In this document: positions 3,303 to 20,000 of the stretch, in pieces
How positions within the stretch are numbered: position 1 is the first letter of the stretch
Layout of the letters: each line of letters begins with the position of its first letter
DNA from: an uncultured virus (IMG/VR IMGVR_UViG_3300014204_000168)
Taxonomy: Duplodnaviria; Heunggongvirae; Uroviricota; Caudoviricetes
Virus record (IMG/VR): IMGVR_UViG_3300014204_000168
Coordinates: 55,189 to 75,188 of that record
Direction: 5' to 3' (one strand)
Length of the DNA: 20,000 bases
Translations under genes and position numbers: made by a program
The notes under the pieces: model-generated
Database searches by the model: none
Told to the model about the DNA's origin: nothing
What the model saw: only the letters and a program-made list of their open reading frames with translations

Positions 3303-3746
3303 ATGGGACAAAAATTTGATGAATTAGAAAAGGATGTTGAAAAAATCTTTGATTTGGTAATTAACTGTACTGATTTAGAACAAAAAGTTAACATTAAAAT
3401 TGTTGGTAACGACAGACAAAAAGAAATAGGTAAAGTAGTTAAAACAAATGATTTGACTAAATACTTAAGTGATGATGTTGATGTGGTTGTAATATTAAAT
3501 CAACTTATATTCGAACAATTACCAGAAGATATGCAAGAAATGGTTGCAATCGAATTAATAACTTATATTGGTTATGATAGTGATAAAGAAAGAGTAGTTA
3601 TTGCTAAACCTGACGTAAATACATTTAGCACTATATTGAAAAAATATGGTTATGAGGCGTATGAAAGAACGGTTGAATCAATTAAATCACTATACGATAA
3701 AAAACAAAATGAAGAAAATGCTGGTGAAGCACCAGCAGAACAATAA
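3303..3746 (+). CDS. Hypothetical protein
   Basis: 147-aa acidic ORF, first gene after a promoter. Confidence 0.75.
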   Translation: MGQKFDELEKDVEKIFDLVINCTDLEQKVNIKIVGNDRQKEIGKVVKTNDLTKYLSDDVDVVVILNQLIFEQLPEDMQEMVAIELITYIGYDSDKERVVIAKPDVNTFSTILKKYGYEAYERTVESIKSLYDKKQNEENAGEAPAEQ

Positions 3747-3767
3747 CGTATCCGTAAAAAAATTAAA

Positions 3768-3989
3768 ATGGAAGACGAAAAAGCAATCTTTGAGAAAAAT
3801 TGGGATATATTTGTATTAACAGGTATGCCTTGGCACGAAATTAAATCACTAACTATTACTGATAGAGATTATATGTATGCTAAAGCTGTTGAAGCTAAAG
3901 AAAAAACGCTAGCACAATTGAAAGCTAGAGACGAATATTATGCTTCACAAGGTTTAGGTCCTGATGGTAAACCACAACAACAACAATAA
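3768..3989 (+). CDS. Hypothetical protein
   Basis: 73-aa ORF, coupled to the next gene through TAATG. Confidence 0.7.
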   Translation: MEDEKAIFEKNWDIFVLTGMPWHEIKSLTITDRDYMYAKAVEAKEKTLAQLKARDEYYASQGLGPDGKPQQQQ

Positions 3990-4243
3990 TGGATGTCGAA
4001 ACATTAGCAGAATTAAACCCAGATGCCTTAACGGCTGATGGGTTTGAAGATGCACTTATAGGTGCAGTGCAAAGATGTGGTTTAGGACCAATAGCTTTAT
4101 ACAGTCAAGCTAAATGTCTTTCTATTTTAGTTGAAAGAGACGGTATGAGTTTTGAAGAAGCTATGGAATACTTCGATTTTAACGTATTAGGTGCTTATAT
4201 GGGTGAAAACACCCCAATGTTTTTAATGGACGATGAAGAATAG
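3989..4243 (+). CDS. Small acidic phage hypothetical protein
   Basis: 84 aa. ADGFEDALIG...EEAMEYFDFNVLGAYMGENTPMF resembles a common small phage protein family. Ends in TAG. Confidence 0.75.
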   Translation: MDVETLAELNPDALTADGFEDALIGAVQRCGLGPIALYSQAKCLSILVERDGMSFEEAMEYFDFNVLGAYMGENTPMFLMDDEE

Positions 4244-4266: not shown

Positions 4267-4971
4267 ATGGACAATTATAGTAATGTAGATTATTACGGAG
4301 AATTTAAAAACTACGCTTGTAGACATCTAGGTGTTTCTCAAATGCAATTTAGAGCTTGGGAACAACTTCAAACAAGATTGTATACACAAGCATCAATGAC
4401 ACCATATATTCTTGAAGAAAGAGAAATGCGTGTAACTCAAATGGATATCTTTTCACGTTTAATGATGGATAGAATTTTATGGATTGCTGGTGTTGTTAAT
4501 GACGCTATGAGTACTGTTGTACAAGCACAATTAATGTTTCTAGACAACGTAAATAATGAAGATATTACAATGCATATAGATACACCCGGAGGAAGTGTTA
4601 AATCTGGATTATCAATGGTTGATGTTATGGATTATATTAAATCAGATATTGCAACCATTAATACTGGTATGGCAGCATCAATGGGGTCTGTATTATTAGG
4701 TGCTGGAACTAAAGGTAAACGTTCTAGTTTACCATCAAGTAGAGTTATGTTACATCAAGTGTCTTCTGGTAGTGAAGGAAATATACAAGATATGAGAATA
4801 TCTATGATTGAAACTGAAAAAATTAACTTAGAACTTTTTTCAAAACTTGCATCGTATTGTGGTAAATCAGTTGAAGAAGTTATGTTAGATACAGAAAGAG
4901 ATAAATGGTTAACCAGTCAAGAAGCAGTTACTTATGGTATAATTGATTCGGTTATTACAAAACGTAAATAA
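4267..4971 (+). CDS. clpP: ATP-dependent Clp protease proteolytic subunit
   Basis: DIFSRLMMDRI, IDTPGGSV, GMAASMG (catalytic Ser), MLHQ (His), ERDKWL (Asp). Confidence 0.95.
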   Translation: MDNYSNVDYYGEFKNYACRHLGVSQMQFRAWEQLQTRLYTQASMTPYILEEREMRVTQMDIFSRLMMDRILWIAGVVNDAMSTVVQAQLMFLDNVNNEDITMHIDTPGGSVKSGLSMVDVMDYIKSDIATINTGMAASMGSVLLGAGTKGKRSSLPSSRVMLHQVSSGSEGNIQDMRISMIETEKINLELFSKLASYCGKSVEEVMLDTERDKWLTSQEAVTYGIIDSVITKRK

Positions 4972-4972
4972 T

Positions 4973-5410
4973 ATGAAAACGACAGTAAATCTTCAAAATA
5001 AAAAAGGTTCTTTTAATTATCAATTCTTAGATAAATATGTTGCTGGTATAATGTTAATAGGTACCGAAGTTAAAGCTATTAGGGATGGTAATGTTAGTTT
5101 TGTTGATAGTTACTGTGTATTCATTGATAATGAATTATGGCTCACCGGACTACATATTTCACAATATAAATTTGGTGATGCACACGAAGAAAAACGTCAT
5201 AGGAAACTATTATTAACAAAGAAAGAATTATCTAAACTTTCATATAATGTAAAACAATCTGGGTTAACAATAGTACCTGTACGTTTATTCACAACGGATA
5301 AGGGTTTATTAAAATTAGAAATTGCTTTAGCTAAAGGTAAAAAAAGTTACGATAAACGTGAAGATTTGAAACTTAAAGATGCTAAACGAGAAATGGAGAG
5401 GGTATTATAA
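4973..5410 (+). CDS. smpB: SsrA-binding protein SmpB
   Basis: NKKGSFNY..AGIMLIGTEVKAIR, RKLLL, GLTIVP, ALAKGKKSYDKRE. ATG at 4973 preferred over the 4943 start. The tmRNA gene lies just downstream. Confidence 0.95.
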   Translation: MKTTVNLQNKKGSFNYQFLDKYVAGIMLIGTEVKAIRDGNVSFVDSYCVFIDNELWLTGLHISQYKFGDAHEEKRHRKLLLTKKELSKLSYNVKQSGLTIVPVRLFTTDKGLLKLEIALAKGKKSYDKREDLKLKDAKREMERVL

Positions 5411-5685: not shown

Positions 5686-6051
5686 GGGGCATAACTGGCT
5701 TTAGATTTTGTATAATCGTAAGTGGTAAGCATGTAGTGAAATAACTAAATTCACTTTAAACGAGTAGTTAAAAGTTCAAATGGCAATATGTTAAATATTT
5801 CCGAAAACTTCCTTGCTGAGGCTTCTTTTGAAGTGCTTGCTGGAGAGGCTGTAGCTGCCTAAGTATACGAAGCATACAACCAAGAACCCACTTTAAAATT
5901 GTTCCAAGTGGTTAATCTAGGGTCAATAGCGTAGGTATCAGTTGAAGCTATATTAAACTGAATATATTGGAAAGATAGAAATCTTTATCCTAAACATGTA
6001 GAAAGGTATTGAAGAATATGAAAGACCGGGGTTCGAATTCCCGATGCTCCA
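5686..6051 (+). ncRNA. ssrA: tmRNA (transfer-messenger RNA)
   Basis: Acceptor stem GGGGCAT/ATGCTCC-A with G3:U70, T-arm CGGGG-TTCGAAT-TCCCG, tag ORF 5782-5862 GNMLNISENFLAEASFEVLAGEAVAA*. Close to smpB. CCA not encoded. Confidence 0.93.
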
Positions 6052-6063
6052 CTAGAATAAACG

Positions 6064-7328: not shown

Positions 7329-7346
7329 AAATAATTACTAAAAACC

Positions 7347-7438
7347 TTGACAAGTTAAAAAATTTTTAGTAATTTTGCAGTGTACTTAGATTTTAACGAT
7401 TAATGTTATATTTATAAAGTACAAAAAGTTCATTGATT
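7347..7438 (+). promoter_or_regulatory. Promoter region of the first RNA array: Bacteroidota promoter, TATTTATA and boxA-like element
   Basis: TTG 7347-7349, TAATTTTG 7370-7377, TATTTATA 7409-7416, GTTCATTGATT 7428-7438. Confidence 0.7.
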
Positions 7439-7454
7439 AATAAAAAAGGTGTAA

Positions 7455-7711
7455 GGAATGATTACCGCAAATTAAAAATTACACAAATATGAAAAGCAAA
7501 TGAGAGGTTTGATTATAGTCCTCTTAACTATTAAGAAACAAGAAGGTTAAAAACTTCTCCTTAATATGAAGAAAAAAAAAGGTAATCTCACTATGAAAGT
7601 GGCTAAATATTCCCAGTTTAAAACATTGGTTAAATAGTTTGGTATTCAGATAGAGTTAATCCCAGTACTAGGTATATGAGAACTTAAATCGTAACGTTTA
7701 CCGTCATTCCG
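7455..7711 (+). ncRNA. Putative structured ncRNA, TWCNGCAA motif copy 2 (long, multi-hairpin)
   Basis: GGAATGA(7455-7461)/TCATTCC(7704-7710) closing stem, TACCGCAA, internal hairpins such as GAGAGG/CCTCTT, AGAAG/CTTCT, CACT/AGTG. No long ORF. Confidence 0.55.
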
Positions 7712-7728
7712 TCACAAAATATAAATAA

Positions 7729-7789
7729 AGGAAGAGTTCAGCAATTAAAAAAAATTAAAATTGAAAATTTAACTTAAAAGTTCTTCCTG
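7729..7789 (+). ncRNA. TWCNGCAA motif copy 3 (short)
   Basis: AGGAAGAG-TTCAGCAA...TTCTTCCT-G, arms identical to copy 4. Confidence 0.6.
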
Positions 7790-7795
7790 TTTTTT

Positions 7796-7860
7796 GCCCT
7801 TGTATTATTTGTATGTAACAATACGAGATAATATTGGTGATTCATTATCACCCAAGGGCA
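7796..7860 (+). ncRNA. D-armless tRNA-like RNA 1
   Basis: 7-bp acceptor GCCCTTG/CAAGGGC-A, T-arm GGTGA-TTCATTA-TCACC, one long hairpin in place of the D and anticodon arms. Confidence 0.6.
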
Positions 7861-7927
7861 CATATAAATCCTAACTGGTTCACTGGATATAAGTTATTAA
7901 CTTATGTTCACACAGTAGGTAAAAATT

Positions 7928-8001
7928 TGCGAGGTGGTAGCAGTTGGTAGCTCGTTAGGCTCATAACCTAAAGGTCAGTGGTTCGAGTCCACTCTTCGCT
8001 A
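7928..8001 (+). tRNA. tRNA-Met(CAT), initiator-like
   Basis: TGCGAGG/CTTCGCT with 1:72 mismatch, TTAGG-CTCATAA-CCTAA, AGTGG-TTCGAGT-CCACT. Confidence 0.9.
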
Positions 8002-8061
8002 CAACAATCCTCCCCATGCCTATCCTTTGGAAGCACACTTTGGGGAGCTTATAAAATATAT

Positions 8062-8145
8062 CGTGGGGTGGTGTAAGGGTAACATTCTTGGCTCATAACC
8101 AAGAGACAGTTAATGCTAGTATAGGTTCGAATCCTGTCTCCGCAA
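8062..8145 (+). tRNA. tRNA-Met(CAT) with C1:A72 mismatch and 17-nt variable region
   Basis: CGTGGGG/CTCCGCA-A, CTTGG-CTCATAA-CCAAG, ATAGG-TTCGAAT-CCTGT. Confidence 0.85.
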
Positions 8146-8150
8146 CAAAT

Positions 8151-8201
8151 GGAAGTGTACGTAGAGAGTACGTAATATTGGAGCAATACCAATCACTTCC
8201 A
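8151..8201 (+). ncRNA. D-armless tRNA-like RNA 2
   Basis: GGAAGTG/CACTTCC-A acceptor, TACGTA-GAGAG-TACGTA hairpin, ATTGG-AGCAATA-CCAAT arm with T-arm geometry (5 bp, 7-nt loop). Confidence 0.6.
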
Positions 8202-8209
8202 CAAAATAA

Positions 8210-8261
8210 AGGAAGAGTTCAGCAATTAAATTCTATGGTTAAGAAAAAAAAGTTCTTCCTG
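8210..8261 (+). ncRNA. TWCNGCAA motif copy 4 (short)
   Basis: AGGAAGAG-TTCAGCAA-...TTCT-ATGGTTA-AGAA...TTCTTCCT-G. Confidence 0.6.
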
Positions 8262-8278
8262 TTTTTTAAAATAAAAAT

Positions 8279-8365
8279 ATGACACCAGCTATTATAACGG
8301 GAATATGTATTGCAGCACCATATGTTATTGCATTTACAATATTGATAATAAATTCTAGACAATAA
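8279..8365 (+). CDS. 28-aa hydrophobic (single-TM) microprotein
   Basis: MTPAIITGICIAAPYVIAFTILIINSRQ*, A-rich leader. Confidence 0.5.
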   Translation: MTPAIITGICIAAPYVIAFTILIINSRQ

Positions 8366-8399
8366 TAACTGTATTAATAATTAATTAAAATTTCACCAA

Positions 8400-9078
8400 A
8401 TGAAAAAACTATTTTTAGAACTTAGAGATGCTGAAGGCGGTGCCGATGCAAAACTGCTTGTAGGTGAAATGAAAAATATCTACACAAAAGCAGCCAGTAT
8501 TAATAACTTTGATTGTTCAACAGTTGAAGAAAGAAGTGGATTTGTCATGCTTTGCCTTTAGCGGTAAAGATGTAGAAAAGTATTTCCAAGAAGAAATCGG
8601 GTCACATAGATGGCAAAGAATACCACCAACTGAAAAGAGGGGTAGGATTCAAACTAGTTGTATAACCGTTGCTTTAATTCCAGAAGAAGAATATAATTTT
8701 AAATTAAACCGTGATGAGGTTAATCGCAAATACACTCGTAGTAGTGGTAAAGGTGGTCAACATAGAAATAAGGTTGAAACTTGTGTTGTATTAACTCATA
8801 TACCTACAGGTATCATGGTTAGAATTGGTAATAATCGAGAAAGACATAGAAATGAAGAATTAGCTTGGGAAGAAATAGAAAAAAGAATTAGAGATATTTA
8901 TTTTAATAAGATAAATGACGAAGAAATAGAATTTAGAAAACAACAAATTGGTAATGGTGCTCGTTCTGACAAAAGAAGAACATATAGAGTTAAAGATGAT
9001 TTAGTTATCGACCATATTACTAATAAAAGAGCTAAATTAAAAGATATACTAAGAGGTAATATTCAATTATTACACTAA
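8400..9078 (+). CDS. Minimal class I peptide chain release factor, RF1-like (PxT), requiring a +1 frameshift at CTT TAG C (8556-8562)
   Basis: ORF1 8400-8561 MKKLFLELRDAEGGADAKLL... matches the LEIRxGxGGxEA start of RF domain 2. The +1 frame continues SGKDVEKYFQEEIGSHRWQRIPPTEKRGRIQTS...SSGKGGQHRNK...RSDKRRTY. Joined product is about 225 aa with no domain 1. Confidence 0.85.
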
Positions 9079-9085
9079 AATATCA

Positions 9086-9168
9086 CCGGCTATGGCAGAG
9101 TGGACAATCGCACTGGGCTCATATCCCACGTTCTTAGGAACCCGTAGGTTCGAATCCTACTAGCCGGA
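9086..9168 (+). tRNA. tRNA with CAT anticodon on a class II (Leu-like) body
   Basis: CCGGCTA/TAGCCGG-A, TGGG-CTCATAT-CCCA, variable arm GTTC-TTAG-GAAC, GTAGG-TTCGAAT-CCTAC. Confidence 0.85.
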
Positions 9169-13417: not shown

Positions 13418-14041
13418 ATGATTAATGGTTTACTAAGAAAATATTTAAAAGAATATATTGAAAATCAAGGTTTTTTGGTTTATCATGGTTCACCAACAAA
13501 AATTGCTAAATTTAGTGATGAATTTGTTAGTGGTGAAAAATCTAATGATGCTGAAGGTCCGGGCATCTACACAACAAATATATATAATGATGCCAGACAA
13601 TATGGTAATAATATATATACCTTAAAATTATCCCCAAGAAAATTACTAACTGAAGCTCCAATCAATAAATTAACATATAATATATCATCTGTATTAAAAA
13701 AACTTATTAAGATGATAGATGGGTGGGAATTAACTGCACAAAATTGGCATATGAACCCTAACATTGGTTTAGATATGGCGATTAAATCATTTATTGAATA
13801 TAATGATAATGAAAAAGATGTCTTTCTACAAGTTTGGGTTGATTTTTACGGGTATTCAAACGGTATATCATATATTAGAGATATGGTAACGTTAGGTATT
13901 GATGGTGTTTTGGTGGATAAGAAGGATTTTGAAAGATTTGAAGGTTTTAAAAATTGTAAACATATTATAATATATAACCCATCAATTATTGAGGTAAGAG
14001 ATGTCGAATTTAATACTGAAGAAAATGATAAAAAATTTTAA
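13418..14041 (+). CDS. ADP-ribosyltransferase-like protein with leader
   Basis: VYHGS...GPGIYTT..ARQYG...GIDGV..IIIYNP pattern of phage H-Y-type ART domains. TATTTATA at 13393-13400. Confidence 0.6.
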   Translation: MINGLLRKYLKEYIENQGFLVYHGSPTKIAKFSDEFVSGEKSNDAEGPGIYTTNIYNDARQYGNNIYTLKLSPRKLLTEAPINKLTYNISSVLKKLIKMIDGWELTAQNWHMNPNIGLDMAIKSFIEYNDNEKDVFLQVWVDFYGYSNGISYIRDMVTLGIDGVLVDKKDFERFEGFKNCKHIIIYNPSIIEVRDVEFNTEENDKKF

Positions 14042-14408
14042 TAAAAAAAATATATTACTAATTGATGATGATGATAATGTTCATACATTATTAAAACTTT
14101 ATTTAGAAGGGTCTAAAAGTAATTTAATTTCAGCTAAAAGTGGTTGTGATGGTATTACAAAATTCATAACTAATAAGATAGATTTAATTATTTTAGATGT
14201 TAATATGCCAAATATGAATGGTTTTGAAACGTTAGTTAAATTAAAAGAAATAAATTCCAACATTGATGTTATTATGTGTACTGGTAATACCGAATTCAAA
14301 GATAAAGTATATTCGGCTGGTGCCATAGCGTATATATTAAAACCAATAGAAAAGAATAAACTATTACATGTAATTGATATGGTATTTAAATTACAAAGTG
14401 TTGAATAA
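14025..14408 (+). CDS. Stand-alone response regulator receiver (CheY-like) protein
   Basis: ILLIDDD, LIILDVNMPNMNG (phospho-Asp), MCTG, YILKP. Confidence 0.9.
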   Translation: MIKNFNKKNILLIDDDDNVHTLLKLYLEGSKSNLISAKSGCDGITKFITNKIDLIILDVNMPNMNGFETLVKLKEINSNIDVIMCTGNTEFKDKVYSAGAIAYILKPIEKNKLLHVIDMVFKLQSVE

Positions 14409-15111: not shown

Positions 15112-15462
15112 ATGTTAAATTTTATAAAATTTAATTATCTTAATAAAATATTAAATATAATTAAAATATCATGTGAAAAAAATAATAGTGTTAGTTCAAC
15201 TAGAATAATAGCTTATATAATAACAGTATTAGTTATAATAATAACAATATTATCTTTAGGTGCTGGTATATATATTGCAATATCAACTAAAGTAATTCCT
15301 AATGAAATCGTTATTATTTTAGGTATGTTATTAACACATCAATTAACTTTATTGGGTATTAATAAATACCATGAAACAAAACAAAAGGTTGCTGGTGTTG
15401 AACCAAAAAATAATGATGTAACGCAAGAAACCACTCAAATAGTAGATGAAACAGTTAATTAA
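15112..15462 (+). CDS. Two-TM membrane protein (holin-like)
   Basis: SSTR followed by two hydrophobic helices and a charged C-tail. Confidence 0.6.
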   Translation: MLNFIKFNYLNKILNIIKISCEKNNSVSSTRIIAYIITVLVIIITILSLGAGIYIAISTKVIPNEIVIILGMLLTHQLTLLGINKYHETKQKVAGVEPKNNDVTQETTQIVDETVN

Positions 15463-16147
15463 AACATTATTAAGGGAAAGTTTAATCAGAGAAATGTCTG
15501 ATGATTTAGAAGATTTATATTATAACATGACTAGAGAAGTGTTAAGTATGATTAAAGTTGGTGAAAAACTAGAATTTAAATTAATTCCTAAAACACAATA
15601 CCATAAGGCCTTACAAGATTTTACAAGAGGTAACGGTAAATTCCAACATTTTCCGGTTAAATATATAGAAGCTTGGAAGTATAGATGTTTAACAAATATT
15701 TTTAAGTTAAATGCAACAACTGAAATATTTGGTCATACAACACATTTCCCTATTGATGAATTCTTAGATGTTTTTGATTACAATCAAGAAACCGGTGAAG
15801 AACATAATGGTGAATTTTCTGCTTGGTTAAGACAAAGACATGAAGAAGAACCAGAAAATAAAGATTATATTAATAATCGTGATTTTTACGCAGCTTCAGA
15901 ATTTTTACATGATGTTAAAAATGTTGATGATGTTATACCTACCTTTAGTAATGGTCAATATATGATGTCAGACTATGGTTTAGAACCTTTATTAAAATTA
16001 GCCCATGAATTAGATGATAAGACTACCCCAGAAGAAATTATTGTCGTGATAAATAAAATATTAGATGTTGCACATCAACGTAGTGACTTAGCAGAGTTAT
16101 TCATTGAGGGTGGTTCATCATCTTTATCAGATATTTCTAACAAATAA
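15446..16147 (+). CDS. Hypothetical protein with LLRE-type leader
   Basis: 233 aa, N-terminus MKQLIKTLLRESLIRE. Confidence 0.75.
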   Translation: MKQLIKTLLRESLIREMSDDLEDLYYNMTREVLSMIKVGEKLEFKLIPKTQYHKALQDFTRGNGKFQHFPVKYIEAWKYRCLTNIFKLNATTEIFGHTTHFPIDEFLDVFDYNQETGEEHNGEFSAWLRQRHEEEPENKDYINNRDFYAASEFLHDVKNVDDVIPTFSNGQYMMSDYGLEPLLKLAHELDDKTTPEEIIVVINKILDVAHQRSDLAELFIEGGSSSLSDISNK

Positions 16148-16148
16148 T

Positions 16149-16179
16149 TTGTTTTTCTCATTTTATTGTGTTATCTTTG
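16149..16179 (+). promoter_or_regulatory. Bacteroidota-type promoter
   Basis: TTG 16149-16151, N20, TATCTTTG 16172-16179. Confidence 0.75.
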
Positions 16180-16204
16180 TATCCTAATTAAAAAGAACAA
16201 TAAA

Positions 16205-17335
16205 ATGGAAACAAGATTAGATTTTAAAATAGATTTACCAGAAGATGTTATAAAAATCAATAAAGTTTTTAAAACATTTGGGTTTGACTTATTCCTAGTC
16301 GGTGGTTCAGTTCGTGATGCATATTTAGGGTTAAAACCAAAAGATTGGGATTTAGCTACAAATGCAATACCAGATAAAATAATTGAAATTCTTAAAGGTC
16401 AACCATTTGTTACTAATATCTTGGAAACCGGTAAAGCATTTGGTGTTATTAATGTTATTACTGGTAATGACGAATATGAAATTGCGACATTCAGAGAAGA
16501 TGGTGATTATACCGACTCAAGAAGACCTGATGAAGTTATATTCTCAACTATAGAAAAGGATGTACTTAGAAGAGATTTAACAATCAATGCTTTATTCTAT
16601 GATATAGAAAAAAGTCAAATAGTTGACTTAGTTGATGGTATTTACGATTTACGTTTTAGCGAAATTAGAACTGTTGGTGAACCAATTGATAGATTTAATG
16701 AAGATAAACTTAGAAAATTAAGAGCTATTAGATTTTCAGCTAGATTTGGTTTTAATATGAACTCCAAAACAGCTGGTGCTATAACTAAAGATAATAACTT
16801 AATTGGTGTGTCACCAGAAAGAATTCGAGATGAATTTATTAAAGGTGTTAAAACAGCAAAATCAGTTAGACAATTTTTAAATAGTTTATTTGTTTATGAT
16901 ATGTTTAAACTTATTTTTCCCGGTTTAAACATTAGACATTTTAATTTAATTGAAGTTAAAAGTCCAATTGTTTTAATGGCCATAATATTTGAAGGTAATT
17001 CACCAGCACTCGTAAAAAAAGTGTTAGCTGAGTTAAAATATACTAGTGATGAAATAGGTAAAATATACTTCTTAATGTCATTCTTATATTTTGAACCAAA
17101 TTTAGTTTATAATGCGAAAAAATCACAAATTTTATCTAAAATTTCTAATGATGAAGTTATTAGATTCGCTGAATTAAACAATATGGACATCGAATTAATT
17201 GATAAATTCTTAGATTTTAAATTTACAGTTACCGGTGAAGATATAGAAAAATTAGGTATTAAACCCGGACCTGAAATGGGTAAAAAAATACATGAACTTG
17301 AATTAGAAAACTTTAATAAAATGTTAAATGAGTAA
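16205..17335 (+). CDS. cca: CCA tRNA nucleotidyltransferase (class II)
   Basis: LVGGSVRD...KDWDLAT, EIATFR, RRDLTINAL, RFNEDKLRKLRAIRF, VSPERIRDE. Confidence 0.92.
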   Translation: METRLDFKIDLPEDVIKINKVFKTFGFDLFLVGGSVRDAYLGLKPKDWDLATNAIPDKIIEILKGQPFVTNILETGKAFGVINVITGNDEYEIATFREDGDYTDSRRPDEVIFSTIEKDVLRRDLTINALFYDIEKSQIVDLVDGIYDLRFSEIRTVGEPIDRFNEDKLRKLRAIRFSARFGFNMNSKTAGAITKDNNLIGVSPERIRDEFIKGVKTAKSVRQFLNSLFVYDMFKLIFPGLNIRHFNLIEVKSPIVLMAIIFEGNSPALVKKVLAELKYTSDEIGKIYFLMSFLYFEPNLVYNAKKSQILSKISNDEVIRFAELNNMDIELIDKFLDFKFTVTGEDIEKLGIKPGPEMGKKIHELELENFNKMLNE

Positions 17336-17855
17336 CGATAATAGTAGGTTTTTAAGTCTTATATTAAGACATAAACCAGAAACAATAGGTTTAAAATTAG
17401 ATAATAGTGGTTGGGTAGAAGTTACCCAATTACTATTACAAATGAATAAAAATGGTAGAAAAATAGACATTGAAGAACTTGAGTTTATTGTTAGAACTAA
17501 TAATAAAAAAAGATTTGAGTTTAATAATGATAAATCAAAAATCAGAGCTAGTCAAGGCCATTCATTAGGTATTGACCTACAATATGAAAGTAAAACACCA
17601 CCTAATATATTATATCATGGTACTAGTATTGATAGTGTTAAATCGATTAATGAAAATGGATTACTAAAATTAAAAAGAGACTATGTTCATTTAAGTAATG
17701 ATATTGAAACGGCCACAAATGTCGGTAGTAGACATGGTAAACCAATTATATTTGAAGTATTAGCCGGTGAAATGTATAACGAAGGGTTTATTTTCTATCA
17801 ATCAACTAACGGTGTCTGGTTAACTGACCACGTACCAGCTAAATTTTTAAAATAA
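17328..17855 (+). CDS. kptA: RNA 2'-phosphotransferase (Tpt1/KptA)
   Basis: SRFLSLILRHKPE, KKRF, IRASQGHS, LYHGT, RDYVHLS, NGVWLTDHVP. Confidence 0.95.
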   Translation: MSNDNSRFLSLILRHKPETIGLKLDNSGWVEVTQLLLQMNKNGRKIDIEELEFIVRTNNKKRFEFNNDKSKIRASQGHSLGIDLQYESKTPPNILYHGTSIDSVKSINENGLLKLKRDYVHLSNDIETATNVGSRHGKPIIFEVLAGEMYNEGFIFYQSTNGVWLTDHVPAKFLK

Positions 17856-17911
17856 TAATTGTCTGATAATCAACAAATTAAAAAATAAATTGAAAATAAT
17901 TGCGAAAATAC

Positions 17912-17955
17912 TTGACTTGTATTGAAACTTTTCATATCTTTGCAGTATATTTATA
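17912..17955 (+). promoter_or_regulatory. Promoter of the leader/tRNA operon
   Basis: TTG 17912-17914, N20, TATCTTTG 17935-17942, TATTTATA 17948-17955. Confidence 0.75.
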
Positions 17956-17993
17956 AACAAACAATAGAATTAAACAATAAACAAATAGAAAAA

Positions 17994-18086
17994 ATGAGAA
18001 ATAATAATATACATAGTATTCATAGTAATTGGTCGAACATTAGACGTTCTATCCATTCCGAATCAGGTATGTTTAATTTCTTGTAA
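17994..18086 (+). CDS. Putative attenuator leader peptide (30 aa)
   Basis: MRNNNIHSIHSNWSNIRRSIHSESGMFNFL*. Contains the antiterminator strand at 18059-18068. Confidence 0.75.
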   Translation: MRNNNIHSIHSNWSNIRRSIHSESGMFNFL

Positions 18087-18154
18087 ACAAGATAAGATAT
18101 TAAAAATATTAAAAGCTTAAAAGCCTGATTCGTAAAAACGTTTCAGGCTTTTTT
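18059..18154 (+). promoter_or_regulatory. Attenuator: mutually exclusive antiterminator and terminator
   Basis: Terminator AAAAGCCTGA(18119-18128)/TCAGGCTTTT(18143-18152)+TT. CGAATCAGGT(18059-18068) is complementary to GCCTGATTCG(18123-18132). Confidence 0.8.
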
Positions 18155-18168
18155 ATTTTAAAATAATT

Positions 18169-18240
18169 GGACACGTAGCTCAGAGGCAGAGCGTCTGGCC
18201 GTTAACCAGAGGGTCGGGATTTCGAAATTCTCCTTGTCCG
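18169..18240 (+). tRNA. tRNA-Asn(GTT), C33 variant
   Basis: GGACACG/CTTGTCC-G, TCTGG-CCGTTAA-CCAGA. Confidence 0.88.
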
Positions 18241-18247
18241 CAACAAA

Positions 18248-18260
18248 GTTCTTTGACATA
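18248..18260 (+). promoter_or_regulatory. boxA-like antitermination element
   Basis: GTTCTTTGACATA, close to the rrn/nut boxA consensus (GCTCTTTAACA). Confidence 0.55.
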
Positions 18261-18271
18261 TTGGTAAATAC

Positions 18272-18360
18272 ACATCGGCTCATTAGGCGTGACTAGCTGG
18301 CTCCAACCCAGTCCTTAAGGGTCGTAAGATTAGATGAGGGTTCGAATCCCTACCGATGTG
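18272..18360 (+). tRNA. tRNA-Trp(CCA), atypical (weak D-arm, about 23-nt variable region)
   Basis: ACATCGG/CCGATGT-G, GCTGG-CTCCAAC-CCAGT, AGGG-TTCGAAT-CCCT. Confidence 0.75.
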
Positions 18361-18368
18361 CAAAATAT

Positions 18369-18439
18369 ACAGGTATAATGTAATGGTAGCATTAAGGTCT
18401 CCAAAACCTTCCGTGAGAGTTCGACCCTTTCTACCTGTG
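18369..18439 (+). tRNA. tRNA-Trp(CCA)
   Basis: ACAGGTA/TACCTGT-G, AAGGT-CTCCAAA-ACCTT. Confidence 0.9.
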
Positions 18440-18443
18440 CAAT

Positions 18444-18528
18444 GGAGGTGTGACAGAATGGTATTGTACCGGTCTTGAAAACCGTGGTCGGGGTAACACC
18501 CGTGTGGGTTCGAGCCCTACTACCTCCG
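18444..18528 (+). tRNA. tRNA-Ser(TGA)
   Basis: GGAGGTG/TACCTCC-G, CGGT-CTTGAAA-ACCG, long variable arm. Confidence 0.92.
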
Positions 18529-18537
18529 CAAATTTAT

Positions 18538-18619
18538 GGAAGGTACCGCCATCGGTGGCAAACTAGGCTTGAACCCTAGGGATACCTGTAGGTATGGAGT
18601 TCGATTCTTCTATCTTCCT
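18538..18619 (+). tRNA. tRNA-Ser(TGA) with 8/4 fold and U73
   Basis: 8-bp acceptor GGAAGGTA/TATCTTCC, 4-bp T-stem GGAG-TTCGATT-CTTC, D-arm GCCA-TCGG-TGGC, CTAGG-CTTGAAC-CCTAG, V-arm ATACC-TGTA-GGTAT. Confidence 0.8.
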
Positions 18620-18628
18620 CAAATATAT

Positions 18629-18700
18629 GGTGTTTGAAGCATTAAGGTGATGTGCGTGACTGTGAATCACGAGAACTCGGTTCGATACCGTGCTTACACC
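18629..18700 (+). tRNA. tRNA-His(GTG)
   Basis: G-1:C73, CGTGA-CTGTGAA-TCACG. Two U:U mismatches in the acceptor stem. Confidence 0.85.
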
Positions 18701-18752
18701 CACTTGACATTTTTGTACTTTACCTTATATTTATATAATAAACGATATAAAT

Positions 18753-19409
18753 ATGGGTAGAAGACAAAAACAATATCATTACATTTATAAAACAACAAAT
18801 GTAATAAACAATAAGTACTATATAGGAATGCATAGTACTAATAACCTAGAAGATGGTTATCTAGGTTCAGGTAAACGATTATGGTTTTCAATTAATTATT
18901 ATGGTAAAGAAAATTTCATTAAAGAGATATTAGAATTTTTACCAGATAGAGAATCATTAAAAGAGCGTGAAAAAGAGCTTGTAAATAAACAATTATTAAA
19001 GGAAGATTTATGTATGAATCTAATGATTGGTGGTGAAGGTGGAAGAGGTTTTACTTCAGAAGAACAAAGATTAAATGCGTTTAAATCTAATGAGAGACAA
19101 AAAGAACTTAGAGAAACAAACCCAGATTGGGTTAAAAAAAGAAGTGGAAAATTTGTTAAGACTATTAAGAAATTATATGATGATGAAGTTTTAGAACGAA
19201 AATATTTTTATAATTGGACAGATAAAAACCATTCAAATGAAACTAAACTAAAAATGTCTGAAATTAAAAGTGGTACTGGTGTTGGTGAAACTAATTCACA
19301 ATATGGTACCTGTTGGATTACTAAAGATAATATTAATAAGAAGATTAAAAACGAAGACTTATCTAACTGGGAAAATGAAGGTTGGATAAAAGGTCGATAT
19401 CTTGTGTAG
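18753..19409 (+). CDS. GIY-YIG homing endonuclease (Seg-like) inside the tRNA array
   Basis: YIYKTTNVINNKYYIGMH..DGYLGSG, NLMIGGEGG, NUMOD3-like HSNETKLKMS. Own TTGACA (18704-18709) and TATTTATA (18728-18735). Confidence 0.85.
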   Translation: MGRRQKQYHYIYKTTNVINNKYYIGMHSTNNLEDGYLGSGKRLWFSINYYGKENFIKEILEFLPDRESLKEREKELVNKQLLKEDLCMNLMIGGEGGRGFTSEEQRLNAFKSNERQKELRETNPDWVKKRSGKFVKTIKKLYDDEVLERKYFYNWTDKNHSNETKLKMSEIKSGTGVGETNSQYGTCWITKDNINKKIKNEDLSNWENEGWIKGRYLV

Positions 19410-19455
19410 TTTACTTAGACAACGTTCTGCCTAGAAAAAAATCGGAGTCTAACAT

Positions 19456-19540
19456 TGTCTGGTATTCGAGTGGTGGCAGAAAACAGCCTGATAAGCTGTG
19501 AGATTAATTCTCAACGTGAGTTCAAATCTCACCCAGACGA
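19456..19540 (+). tRNA. tRNA-Ile(GAT) with long variable arm
   Basis: TGTCTGG/CCAGACG-A, ACAGC-CTGATAA-GCTGT, V-arm GAGA-TTAAT-TCTC, GTGAG-TTCAAAT-CTCAC. Confidence 0.82.
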
Positions 19541-19545
19541 CAAAT

Positions 19546-19621
19546 GTACCTAGCCGGGATGGCACTGAGGCTTGTGGAGCCTTATACTAGTTAGTTTTTG
19601 GTTCGAGTCCAATTTAGGTAC
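19546..19621 (+). tRNA. tRNA-His(GTG), atypical (reduced D-arm, extended variable region)
   Basis: G-TACCTAG/TTAGGTA-C, GAGGC-TTGTGGA-GCCTT, TTGG-TTCGAGT-CCAA. Confidence 0.7.
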
Positions 19622-19637
19622 CTAAGAAATAATAAAT

Positions 19638-19711
19638 CCGCTTGTATATCAATTGGTTAGATTACTTCCCTGATACGGAAGAGGTTATAGGTTCAAGTCC
19701 TATCAAGCGGA
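19638..19711 (+). tRNA. tRNA-Ile(GAT)
   Basis: CCGCTTG/CAAGCGG-A, CTTCC-CTGATAC-GGAAG, ATAGG-TTCAAGT-CCTAT. Confidence 0.9.
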
Positions 19712-19737
19712 CAAATAAATTAAAAACAATTATTAAA

Positions 19738-20000
19738 ATGGAAAAATTAAATGTTCAAAAACAATTATTAAAATCTAAAGTAAGTGCTAAATTTTCACAT
19801 TATTGTTCTGGTAATTTATATTATACAGTAGAAATAGAAGAAGGTATTTTTCAATTTCCAATCGAAACTATTGAGACTGTTAAAGTAATTGGTAAACCTG
19901 AAGTTGAATTACCATTCATTAAATTATCAGCTGATTTAGGTACAACATCTTTTGAAAATCAAATTAAAGCATCTTTCTTAAATAGGTGGATTGGTAAAGC
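19738..20000 (+). CDS. Hypothetical protein, truncated by the window edge
   Basis: Open frame from ATG 19738: MEKLNVQKQLLKSKVSAKFSHYCSGNLYYTV... Confidence 0.7.
   Translation, partial: MEKLNVQKQLLKSKVSAKFSHYCSGNLYYTVEIEEGIFQFPIETIETVKVIGKPEVELPFIKLSADLGTTSFENQIKASFLNRWIGK

Follow-up and report, generated by a model that had tools for sequence, protein, structure and literature searches.

The DNA stretch analyzed here (the window) comprises 20,000 nucleotides (nt) and forms the final 20 kilobases (kb) of a 75-kb record of an uncultured virus (IMG/VR IMGVR_UViG_3300014204_000168; 21% complete by estimate; 27.5% G+C). Close to its end, a transfer RNA (tRNA) operon is preceded by an element that is likely a ribosome-mediated (leader-peptide) transcription attenuator gating this operon, and by which the phage probably makes the tRNAs of the block only when ribosomes read the corresponding codons slowly. 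Between the end of a gene for the RNA 2'-phosphotransferase Tpt1 (17855) and the first tRNA (18169), the window contains a promoter, a 30-codon open reading frame (ORF), a 10-nt complement of the terminator and a hairpin followed by a T-run. An earlier note on this DNA had proposed the layout of promoter, 30-residue ORF and intrinsic terminator upstream of the tRNA array, and both the sequence and folding of the region confirmed it. The case for the attenuator is built on these parts and their geometry, the conservation of the ORF, the match between leader composition and array content, and the joint change of antiterminator and terminator among relatives, all of which were directly observed. 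The coordinates of the features are listed in Table 1.

The content of the array was determined first in the window and then in a second record. Between 18169 and 19712, ARAGORN at default settings identified eight tRNAs (Asn GTT, Trp CCA twice, Ser TGA twice, His GTG and Ile GAT twice), six of which passed the Rfam gathering score. Nine tRNAs had been claimed earlier; the ninth, a second His(GTG) at about 19547-19622, was marginal and appeared only at a relaxed threshold. A 248-kb twin record (G001), which showed 2 differences from the window in 19,445 compared bases, revealed that the array continues past the window end with Met CAT, a long Asn GTT, Arg TCT twice and Arg CCT. In addition, Infernal identified two further tRNA-like genes in the twin whose anticodon loops were read by eye as TAT (Ile, reading ATA) and ACG (Arg, reading CGT); in both, the D region is unusual and the variable region long. 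Given this continuation, the operon serves N, W, S, H, I, M and R, and each of the first 22 residues of the leader has a tRNA in the operon.

The composition of the leader is exceptional. Among residues 1-22, 18 are N, I, H, S or W, as had been stated before, and the remaining four are M1, R2, R17 and R18. After Met1, 24 of the 29 leader residues belong to the array set HIMNRSW (binomial 3e-8 against a proteome frequency of 0.32). When all 283 small ATG ORFs of 20-45 amino acids in the six frames of the 75-kb record were ranked by their H/I/M/N/R/S/W fraction, the leader alone ranked first (0.83; runner-up 0.68), and it was again the sole top candidate of 210 ORFs by the count of N/I/H/S/W in residues 2-23. 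At the codon level, the array tRNAs called by ARAGORN read 18 of the 29 leader codons strictly and 21 with extended wobble, and the leader codons CGT and ATA are covered by the Arg(ACG)-like and Ile(TAT)-like genes beyond the window. Of the caveats raised in the earlier note, the missing tRNA-Arg and the unread ATA codon are thereby removed, while the mismatch at the AGT codons stands.

The leader ORF is conserved. The same 30-codon leader, MKTINIHIHNSNSWNIRRSFGHESGMFCLS, is present at 5176-5268 of a viral locus (L003) whose Tpt1 protein is 70% identical, together with the same antiterminator and a terminator, after which the array comprises Trp, Trp, Ser, an HNH ORF (identified by eye), an unassigned tRNA and His. 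When the viral collection was scanned with the leader, only the twin record and L003 were recovered. A leader-independent anchor, the 5' part of the tRNA-His, yielded 67 viral loci. Among these, L043, L066 and L065 possess further homologues of the leader (e.g., MRTINIHMISISNWRRNSIHNGQGMFNDIIEF) heading arrays of the same kind, and in L059 and L054 a different leader, QPQPQQHPQ or QPQPQHQ, heads Pro/His/Gln arrays. Six loci with Tpt1 relatives at 49-56% identity (L004-L009) had no tRNA within 4 kb and were uninformative. Three GC-rich loci without tRNAs that emerged from a scan for the antiterminator/terminator pattern (L015, L017 and L018) were taken as chance matches.

To determine systematically whether leader composition follows array content, the tRNA-rich stretches of five records were analyzed: the twin G001, G002 and G003 (364 and 362 kb, respectively, both complete with terminal repeats), G004 and G005. 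A detector requiring a terminator-like hairpin at most 700 nt upstream of a tRNA and a small ORF before the hairpin returned 18 leader/array pairs, 17 of which were permuted because one array is truncated where the fetched stretch ends. Examples are the leader LALLDCTAVLFDAFDAL before Cys, Val, Leu, Asp, Phe and Ala; KTYTTYQGTKQPKGEGQ before Pro, Gln, Tyr, Glu, Lys, Gly and Thr; VLDILVAETLVALLWAVDED before Asp, Glu, Val, Leu, Ala and Trp; YYYGKKSYK before Tyr and Lys; FDFAFEAAEAD before Phe, Glu, Gln, Asp and Ala; and TISISTSISRNGNSIFCSNFGGRSRN before Cys, Asn, Ile, Ser, Phe, Gly, Thr and Arg. The three leaders of the twin head arrays for ACDFLV, EGKPQTY (with a long CCA gene in addition) and HIMNRSW, jointly covering all 20 amino acids, and match their own arrays at 0.59, 0.74 and 0.83, compared to 0.10-0.24 for the other arrays. 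The true pairing was the sole best of 6, 24, 24, 6 and 6 permutations in the five records, and none of 100,000 global shuffles of the 17 pairs reached it. When each amino acid was considered in each record, the leader with the most of a given residue stood before the array with the corresponding tRNA in 66 of 80 cases, against 23.6 expected (ties were counted as misses). W, H, E, F and C switch arrays between phages, and the leaders follow. Thus, leader composition co-varies with tRNA content across relatives, and other isotypes have matching leaders of their own.

The same detector was applied to the 67 His-anchored loci and printed candidate leaders for 37 of them, with identical peptides suppressed and individual candidates unvetted. 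For arrays with nearly all amino acids, a match between leader and array is uninformative. Small arrays agree, e.g., TTHTQFTQFTQP before Pro, Phe, Thr and Gln in L020 and LLCLSFSYSL before Leu, Leu, Phe and Tyr in L063.

The second line of evidence concerns the RNA pairing. The earlier note had pointed to a 10-base-pair complement of the terminator 5' arm directly after the sensing block, and this complement is real, consisting of nine Watson-Crick pairs and one G-U pair; an exact complement of at least 9 nt occurred in 18 of 20,000 shuffles of the 122-nt upstream stretch. The region 17960-18168 folds at z = -3.55 relative to shuffles, and the terminator hairpin ends 17 nt 5' of the first tRNA (tRNA-Asn). 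A simple terminator scan missed this hairpin because its loop is too long for the scan. In all 19 leaders (the 18 of the systematic set and that of L003), the segment that pairs best with the 5' arm of the terminator is found within the 3' portion of the ORF, just past the sensing block. All 19 start with ATG and have an open frame of 22-42 codons with a stop near the antiterminator end, which is located between 2 nt past the start of the stop codon and 23 nt before it. The distance from the antiterminator end to the hairpin is 42-57 nt in 15 leaders and 28-33 nt in four.

The antiterminator sequences vary from leader to leader yet fit their own arms, e.g., GAATCAGGT/GCCTGATTC, GGATTGGGT/ACCCAATCC, GTTCAGTCGGGT/ACCCGACTGAAC and GAATGGGG/CCCCATTC. 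A first cross-pairing had chosen the antiterminator window by its own arm and was therefore biased, and the analysis was rerun on the whole upstream region. Under these conditions, pairing with the own arm had a mean of -14.5 kcal/mol versus -9.0 kcal/mol for other arms across the 19 leaders. None of 20,000 re-pairings reached the own-arm pairing, which was also the unique best permutation in each record. Energies of cross-pairing were used instead of a column-wise count of pairs because MAFFT did not keep the helix arms in register when five homologous stretches were aligned. The results demonstrate that the antiterminator changes together with its terminator arm in 19 of 19 leaders.

Also a candidate 1:2 pairing was observed. 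In minimum-free-energy folds of the leader only, the antiterminator strand (segment 2) is mostly paired to the 5' sensing half in all 19 leaders, and in the window 7 of its 10 nt pair with leader nt 17-28. Once the terminator 5' arm is present in the window fold, the 2:3 pairing wins over the candidate 1:2 pairing (0.97). To mimic a ribosome, a 30-nt footprint was masked at each codon and the transcript was folded to just before the terminator 3' arm. Antiterminator pairing was 0.97 with the A-site at codons 2-18, 0.28 at codon 19, 0.00 at codons 20 and 21, and at most 0.01 through codon 29.

According to the mechanism proposed here, the host RNA polymerase would start at the TAnnTTTG promoter and transcribe the 30-codon leader. 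During fast decoding, the ribosome would cover or adjoin the antiterminator (18059-18068), the hairpin at 18119-18152 would form, and transcription would stop 17 nt before the first tRNA. If charged cognate tRNA is scarce, the ribosome would stall in the sensing block, the antiterminator would pair with the emerging terminator 5' arm, and the polymerase would enter the array. In this way, the supply of tRNAs would set their transcription through a closed feedback loop. Translation of the leader, the direction of the switch and its trigger, which may be a codon-usage gap, host shut-off or host tRNA nucleases, are predicted from the sequence.

The promoter box TATCTTTG is of the TAnnTTTG type and not a sigma-70 -10 box. 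A TAnnTT[TC]G box occurs 27-94 nt 5' of the ATG in 18 of 18 related leaders, and in 15 of these it is located within -90 to -30; the background is 319 of 3816 windows of 61 nt. Passages in the literature tie the TAnnTTTG motif to Bacteroidetes promoters. The stretch 5' of the leader ATG is A-rich and lacks a Shine-Dalgarno sequence, which fits this phylum, members of which are reported in the abstract of PMC6847099 to be without Shine-Dalgarno sequences. From these features, we infer a host among the Bacteroidota.

Several observations weigh against the proposed attenuator or narrow its scope. In the masked-ribosome folds, the antiterminator also forms without a ribosome (0.97) or with a ribosome on the stop codon (0.99), and the window folds favour the terminator at equilibrium. 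The off state would thus have to depend on timing and kinetics and on the bulk and steric effects of the ribosome. Stalls at codons 19-22 would cover the antiterminator rather than free it. For two AGT codons of the leader, the visible part of the operon offers no Ser(GCT) tRNA, and the TCT and TCC codons are read only by extended wobble. The weakest pair, the G005a leader at 2658, matches its array at 6 of 21 residues (P = 0.16). In addition, the leaders of relatives have a common descent, and the 18 pairs hence do not amount to 18 independent events; even so, more than one or two separate changes are needed to explain how W, H, E, F and C were redistributed among the arrays. Some tRNAs appear leaderless: in the twin, several array starts have no leader directly upstream, including a Phe/Lys pair and a tRNA(CTA), and a Met-rich leader sought upstream of three CAT tRNAs at 7928-9168 of the window was not found. 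The conserved motif TTGACATATTGG at 18253-18264 might serve as an internal promoter, and hence a second start, or as a processing site, and so bypass the gate. Translation, termination and switching are all predictions from the sequence, and among public sequencing runs no RNA run containing this DNA was listed.

One alternative is that the same translation-coupled attenuator reads amino-acid starvation or general translation capacity, e.g., the timing of infection, and not a tRNA shortage caused by nucleases. A stalled ribosome cannot distinguish a missing from an uncharged tRNA, and the readthrough that the masked-ribosome folds give in the absence of a loaded ribosome fits a general translation sensor. 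However, amino-acid starvation is not cured by more tRNA, a general sensor would not need a leader listing the isotypes of its own operon, and the RNA-repair genes directly upstream, encoding Tpt1 and a CCA-adding enzyme, speak against it. We consider this alternative unlikely.

Much the same parts could also act without translation of the ORF, as an RNA-only or protein-bound switch or with the triplets meeting tRNA anticodons in the manner of a T-box specifier. The two 15-nt leader stretches that are identical between the window and L003, without any synonymous change, indicate a constraint at the RNA level and would suit such a switch. Elsewhere in these two leaders the order of residues is swapped (TGG-TCG versus TCG-TGG), and homologues generally shuffle residues and keep the composition (NWS versus SNSW; IHS as ATT-CAT-AGT or ATC-CAT-TCC), which argues for reading as codons. 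An untranslated element would also not account for the ATG, the frame of 22-42 codons and the stop that all 19 leaders have between 2 nt before and 23 nt after the antiterminator end. Furthermore, no T-box, Trp, His, Leu or Thr leader or other Rfam family was matched in the region (window at the gathering score; 17850-18200 at E <= 10), and an untranslated switch appears very improbable. Equally improbable is that promoter, small ORF and terminator constitute a separate, always-terminating gene for a peptide or short RNA, with the tRNAs starting elsewhere, e.g., at TTGACATATTGG, and the composition match a by-product: the terminator is strong (-17.6 kcal/mol) and the motif is conserved just downstream of it, but the first tRNA begins only 17 nt past the hairpin, the motif lies after this tRNA, and a by-product leaves unexplained both the tracking of composition through several re-assortments and the change of the antiterminator with each terminator.

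With regard to the trigger of the proposed attenuator, host anticodon nucleases are possible. The RNA-repair genes for Tpt1 and the CCA-adding enzyme adjoin the array upstream, and phage tRNAs have been argued to counter tRNA-targeting defences (PMC10264068, PMC11555353, PMC12409363). A wider and rather doubtful extension would be that the giant phages of this clade possess a modular, ribosome-read tRNA supply of three to four operons, each with a leader written in its own codons, by which missing or cut host tRNAs would be detected and only the matching set switched on, and that the long-arm tRNA copies, Tpt1 and the CCA-adding enzyme would be part of the same counter-defence kit.

Table 1. 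Features of the proposed attenuator, the tRNA array and adjoining genes; positions refer to the window unless another record is named.
Feature	Position	Strand	Basis and details
CCA-adding-enzyme gene	16166-17335		Domain search; directly 5' of the unit
Tpt1 RNA 2'-phosphotransferase gene	17328-17855		Domain search; directly 5' of the unit
Putative promoter, Bacteroidota type	17912..17942	+	TTG at 17912-17914; -7 box TATCTTTG at 17935-17942; read from the sequence
Leader ORF, 30 codons and TAA, MRNNNIHSIHSNWSNIRRSIHSESGMFNFL	17994..18086	+	Sequence and ORF list; homologues in L003, L043, L066, L065
Predicted sensing block, codons 2-22	17997..18059	+	All residues R, N, I, H, S or W
Predicted antiterminator strand (segment 2), CGAATCAGGT	18059..18068	+	Pairs with GCCTGATTCG at 18123-18132; -16.6 kcal/mol
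Predicted intrinsic terminator	18119..18160	+	Hairpin 18119-18152; core GCCTGA/TCAGGC, inner CGT/ACG; T-run to ~18160; -17.6 kcal/mol
tRNA-Asn (GTT)	18169..18241	+	ARAGORN; Rfam 48.5 bits
Conserved motif TTGACATATTGG with TTC(T/A)T prefix	18253..18264	+	Between tRNA-Asn and the next tRNA
90-nt tRNA-like gene, anticodon CCA (Trp), long variable arm	18272..18361	+	ARAGORN only; below the Rfam gathering score
tRNA-Trp (CCA)	18369..18440	+	ARAGORN; Rfam 54 bits
tRNA-Ser (TGA)	18444..18529	+	ARAGORN; Rfam 47.8 bits
Second Ser(TGA)-type tRNA-like gene	18538..18620	+	ARAGORN; in the twin only the tRNA-Sec model, 33 bits, below the gathering score
tRNA-His (GTG)	18630..18701	+	ARAGORN; Rfam 38.8 bits
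GIY-YIG homing-endonuclease-like ORF (SegB-like) inside the array	18753..19409	+	Pfam GIY-YIG and NUMOD3, both weak
86-nt tRNA, anticodon GAT (Ile), long variable arm	19456..19541	+	ARAGORN; Rfam 48.5 bits
Marginal tRNA-like gene, anticodon GTG (His)	19547..19622	+	Relaxed ARAGORN on the twin only; no Rfam match at E <= 0.01
tRNA-Ile (GAT)	19638..19712	+	ARAGORN; Rfam 63.4 bits
TAT and ACG tRNA-like genes	Twin G001, reversed, 19569-19649 and 22730-22809 (= L089 8352-8432 and 5192-5271)	minus in L089	Infernal; missed by default ARAGORN
Long-arm tRNA copies in the window	8062-8146, 9086-9168, 18272-18361, 19456-19541

The motif TTGACATATTGG has five occurrences in related stretches, all on the array (+) strand and 123-885 nt past the leader end. 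The next tRNA follows after 18-861 nt, in four of the five cases after at most 99 nt, and the motif is also present in L003, L043 and L066. Over 267 nt, the GIY-YIG ORF inside the array is about 70% identical at the nucleotide level to T4-type segB genes; ORFs identified by eye as HNH-like are located inside or at the head of the arrays of relatives (L003 5671-6225; G002 stretch 3465-4103). No close relative of the region 15400-20000 was found in the phage record collection, in which only the Tpt1 and segB-like parts had matches, at 66-70% identity.

All eight array tRNAs (18169-19712) terminate in a discriminator base followed by CA, and none encodes CCA. Many tRNAs specific for amino acids other than Leu, Ser and Tyr are doubled: besides a standard-length copy, there is one that shares the anticodon but has a long variable arm and measures 80-90 nt. 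Such long-arm tRNAs account for 35 of 201 ARAGORN calls in G001-G005, and for most of these anticodons the short form is present too. A literature search for the phrase 'long variable arm' together with phage terms returned no paper. A tRNA with the anticodon CTA, which reads TAG, occurs in two related phages, the twin (G001a 28658) and G002 (G002a 48036), and may point to amber suppression or to the recoding of a stop codon in some of the genome.

Further upstream, the window contains a translation island with a transfer-messenger RNA (5686-6052; ARAGORN and Rfam), a partial release-factor ORF (8509-9078) and the three CAT tRNAs (7928-9168). The release-factor ORF, of 189 amino acids, contains the PCRF and RF-1 domains and corresponds to no more than the C-terminal portion of a class I release factor. 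ORF-free stretches, each about 500 nt long and located behind promoter boxes, were observed at 7345-7927 (box TAATTTTG at 7383-7390) and in L003 at 4580-5060, the latter terminating in a T-arm-like motif; both may be structured RNAs. At 13418-14408, an ORF with a weak ADP-ribosyltransferase (ART-PolyVal) match overlaps the start of an ORF with a response-regulator receiver domain.

How phages control their tRNAs and why they carry them are open questions on which the proposed gate bears. A gate that reads the decoding speed of the codons of its own tRNAs would, if true, provide a direct feedback from tRNA supply to tRNA synthesis, and we found no description of such a feedback for any tRNA gene. 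The gate would also be relevant to the question whether codon-usage gaps or tRNA-cutting host defences are the reason for phage tRNAs, and the leaders would represent ready-made natural sensors for single tRNA species.

In the T4 tRNA cluster, segB is located inside the cluster, and the phage analyzed here shares with the known tRNA-cluster phages the character of a large lytic phage, many tRNAs, a SegB-like endonuclease in the array and RNA-repair neighbours. The papers on phage tRNA clusters (PMC10264068, PMC11555353, PMC12409363) address why phages carry tRNAs, and in the parts consulted describe no gate by a codon-matched leader. No published account of a leader-peptide attenuator on tRNA genes, from phages or elsewhere, was found in full-text searches of the literature, subscription journals being outside the search; a passage of PMC3082878 was unrelated to attenuators on tRNA genes. 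T-box elements and the phage unit have in common that tRNA status is read, by the latter presumably through the ribosome, and that a choice between terminator and antiterminator is made upstream of translation-related genes. However, a T-box binds one uncharged tRNA via a specifier codon and without a ribosome, whereas the phage unit keeps an open reading frame, and the T-box covariance model, which comprises Stem I, specifier loop and T-box sequence, gave no match at the thresholds stated above.

Four features of leader-peptide attenuators, on the other hand, are found in the unit: a short ORF between the promoter and the first regulated gene (ATG at 17994, 30 codons), its enrichment in codons linked to the function of these genes, an intrinsic terminator before them, and a mutually exclusive antiterminator that co-varies with it as judged by cross-pairing energies. 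To our knowledge, classical leader-peptide attenuators all regulate amino-acid biosynthesis or synthetase genes; the regulated genes here, identified by ARAGORN and Rfam, are tRNAs. Aminoacyl-tRNA synthetase control is represented by the pheST operon, which is attenuated by a Phe-rich leader. Like the phage unit, this leader-peptide attenuator acts on part of the translation machinery rather than on an amino-acid pathway, but its target is a synthetase, it senses a single amino acid, and it is cellular. Multivalent leaders are established in enterobacteria, where the ilvGMEDA leader contains Ile, Leu and Val codons and the thr leader Thr and Ile codons, in addition to trpL, hisL, pheL and leuL. 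These attenuators share with the phage unit a short leader ORF (predicted to be translated here), codons for several amino acids, a terminator with an exclusive antiterminator and, as we infer for the phage, the ribosome as the sensor of charged tRNA; for their 1:2 pairing over the regulatory codons, the phage unit has a candidate. Unlike them, the phage unit would regulate the tRNAs that read the codons of its own leader and not biosynthetic enzymes. It would sense up to seven to eight amino acids at once, with several units dividing the tRNA set, and it is phage-borne, possesses a Bacteroidota-type promoter and matches no Rfam leader family. The mechanism proposed is classical, and it is in the regulated genes and the putative closed loop between codons and tRNAs that the unit departs from the classical attenuators.

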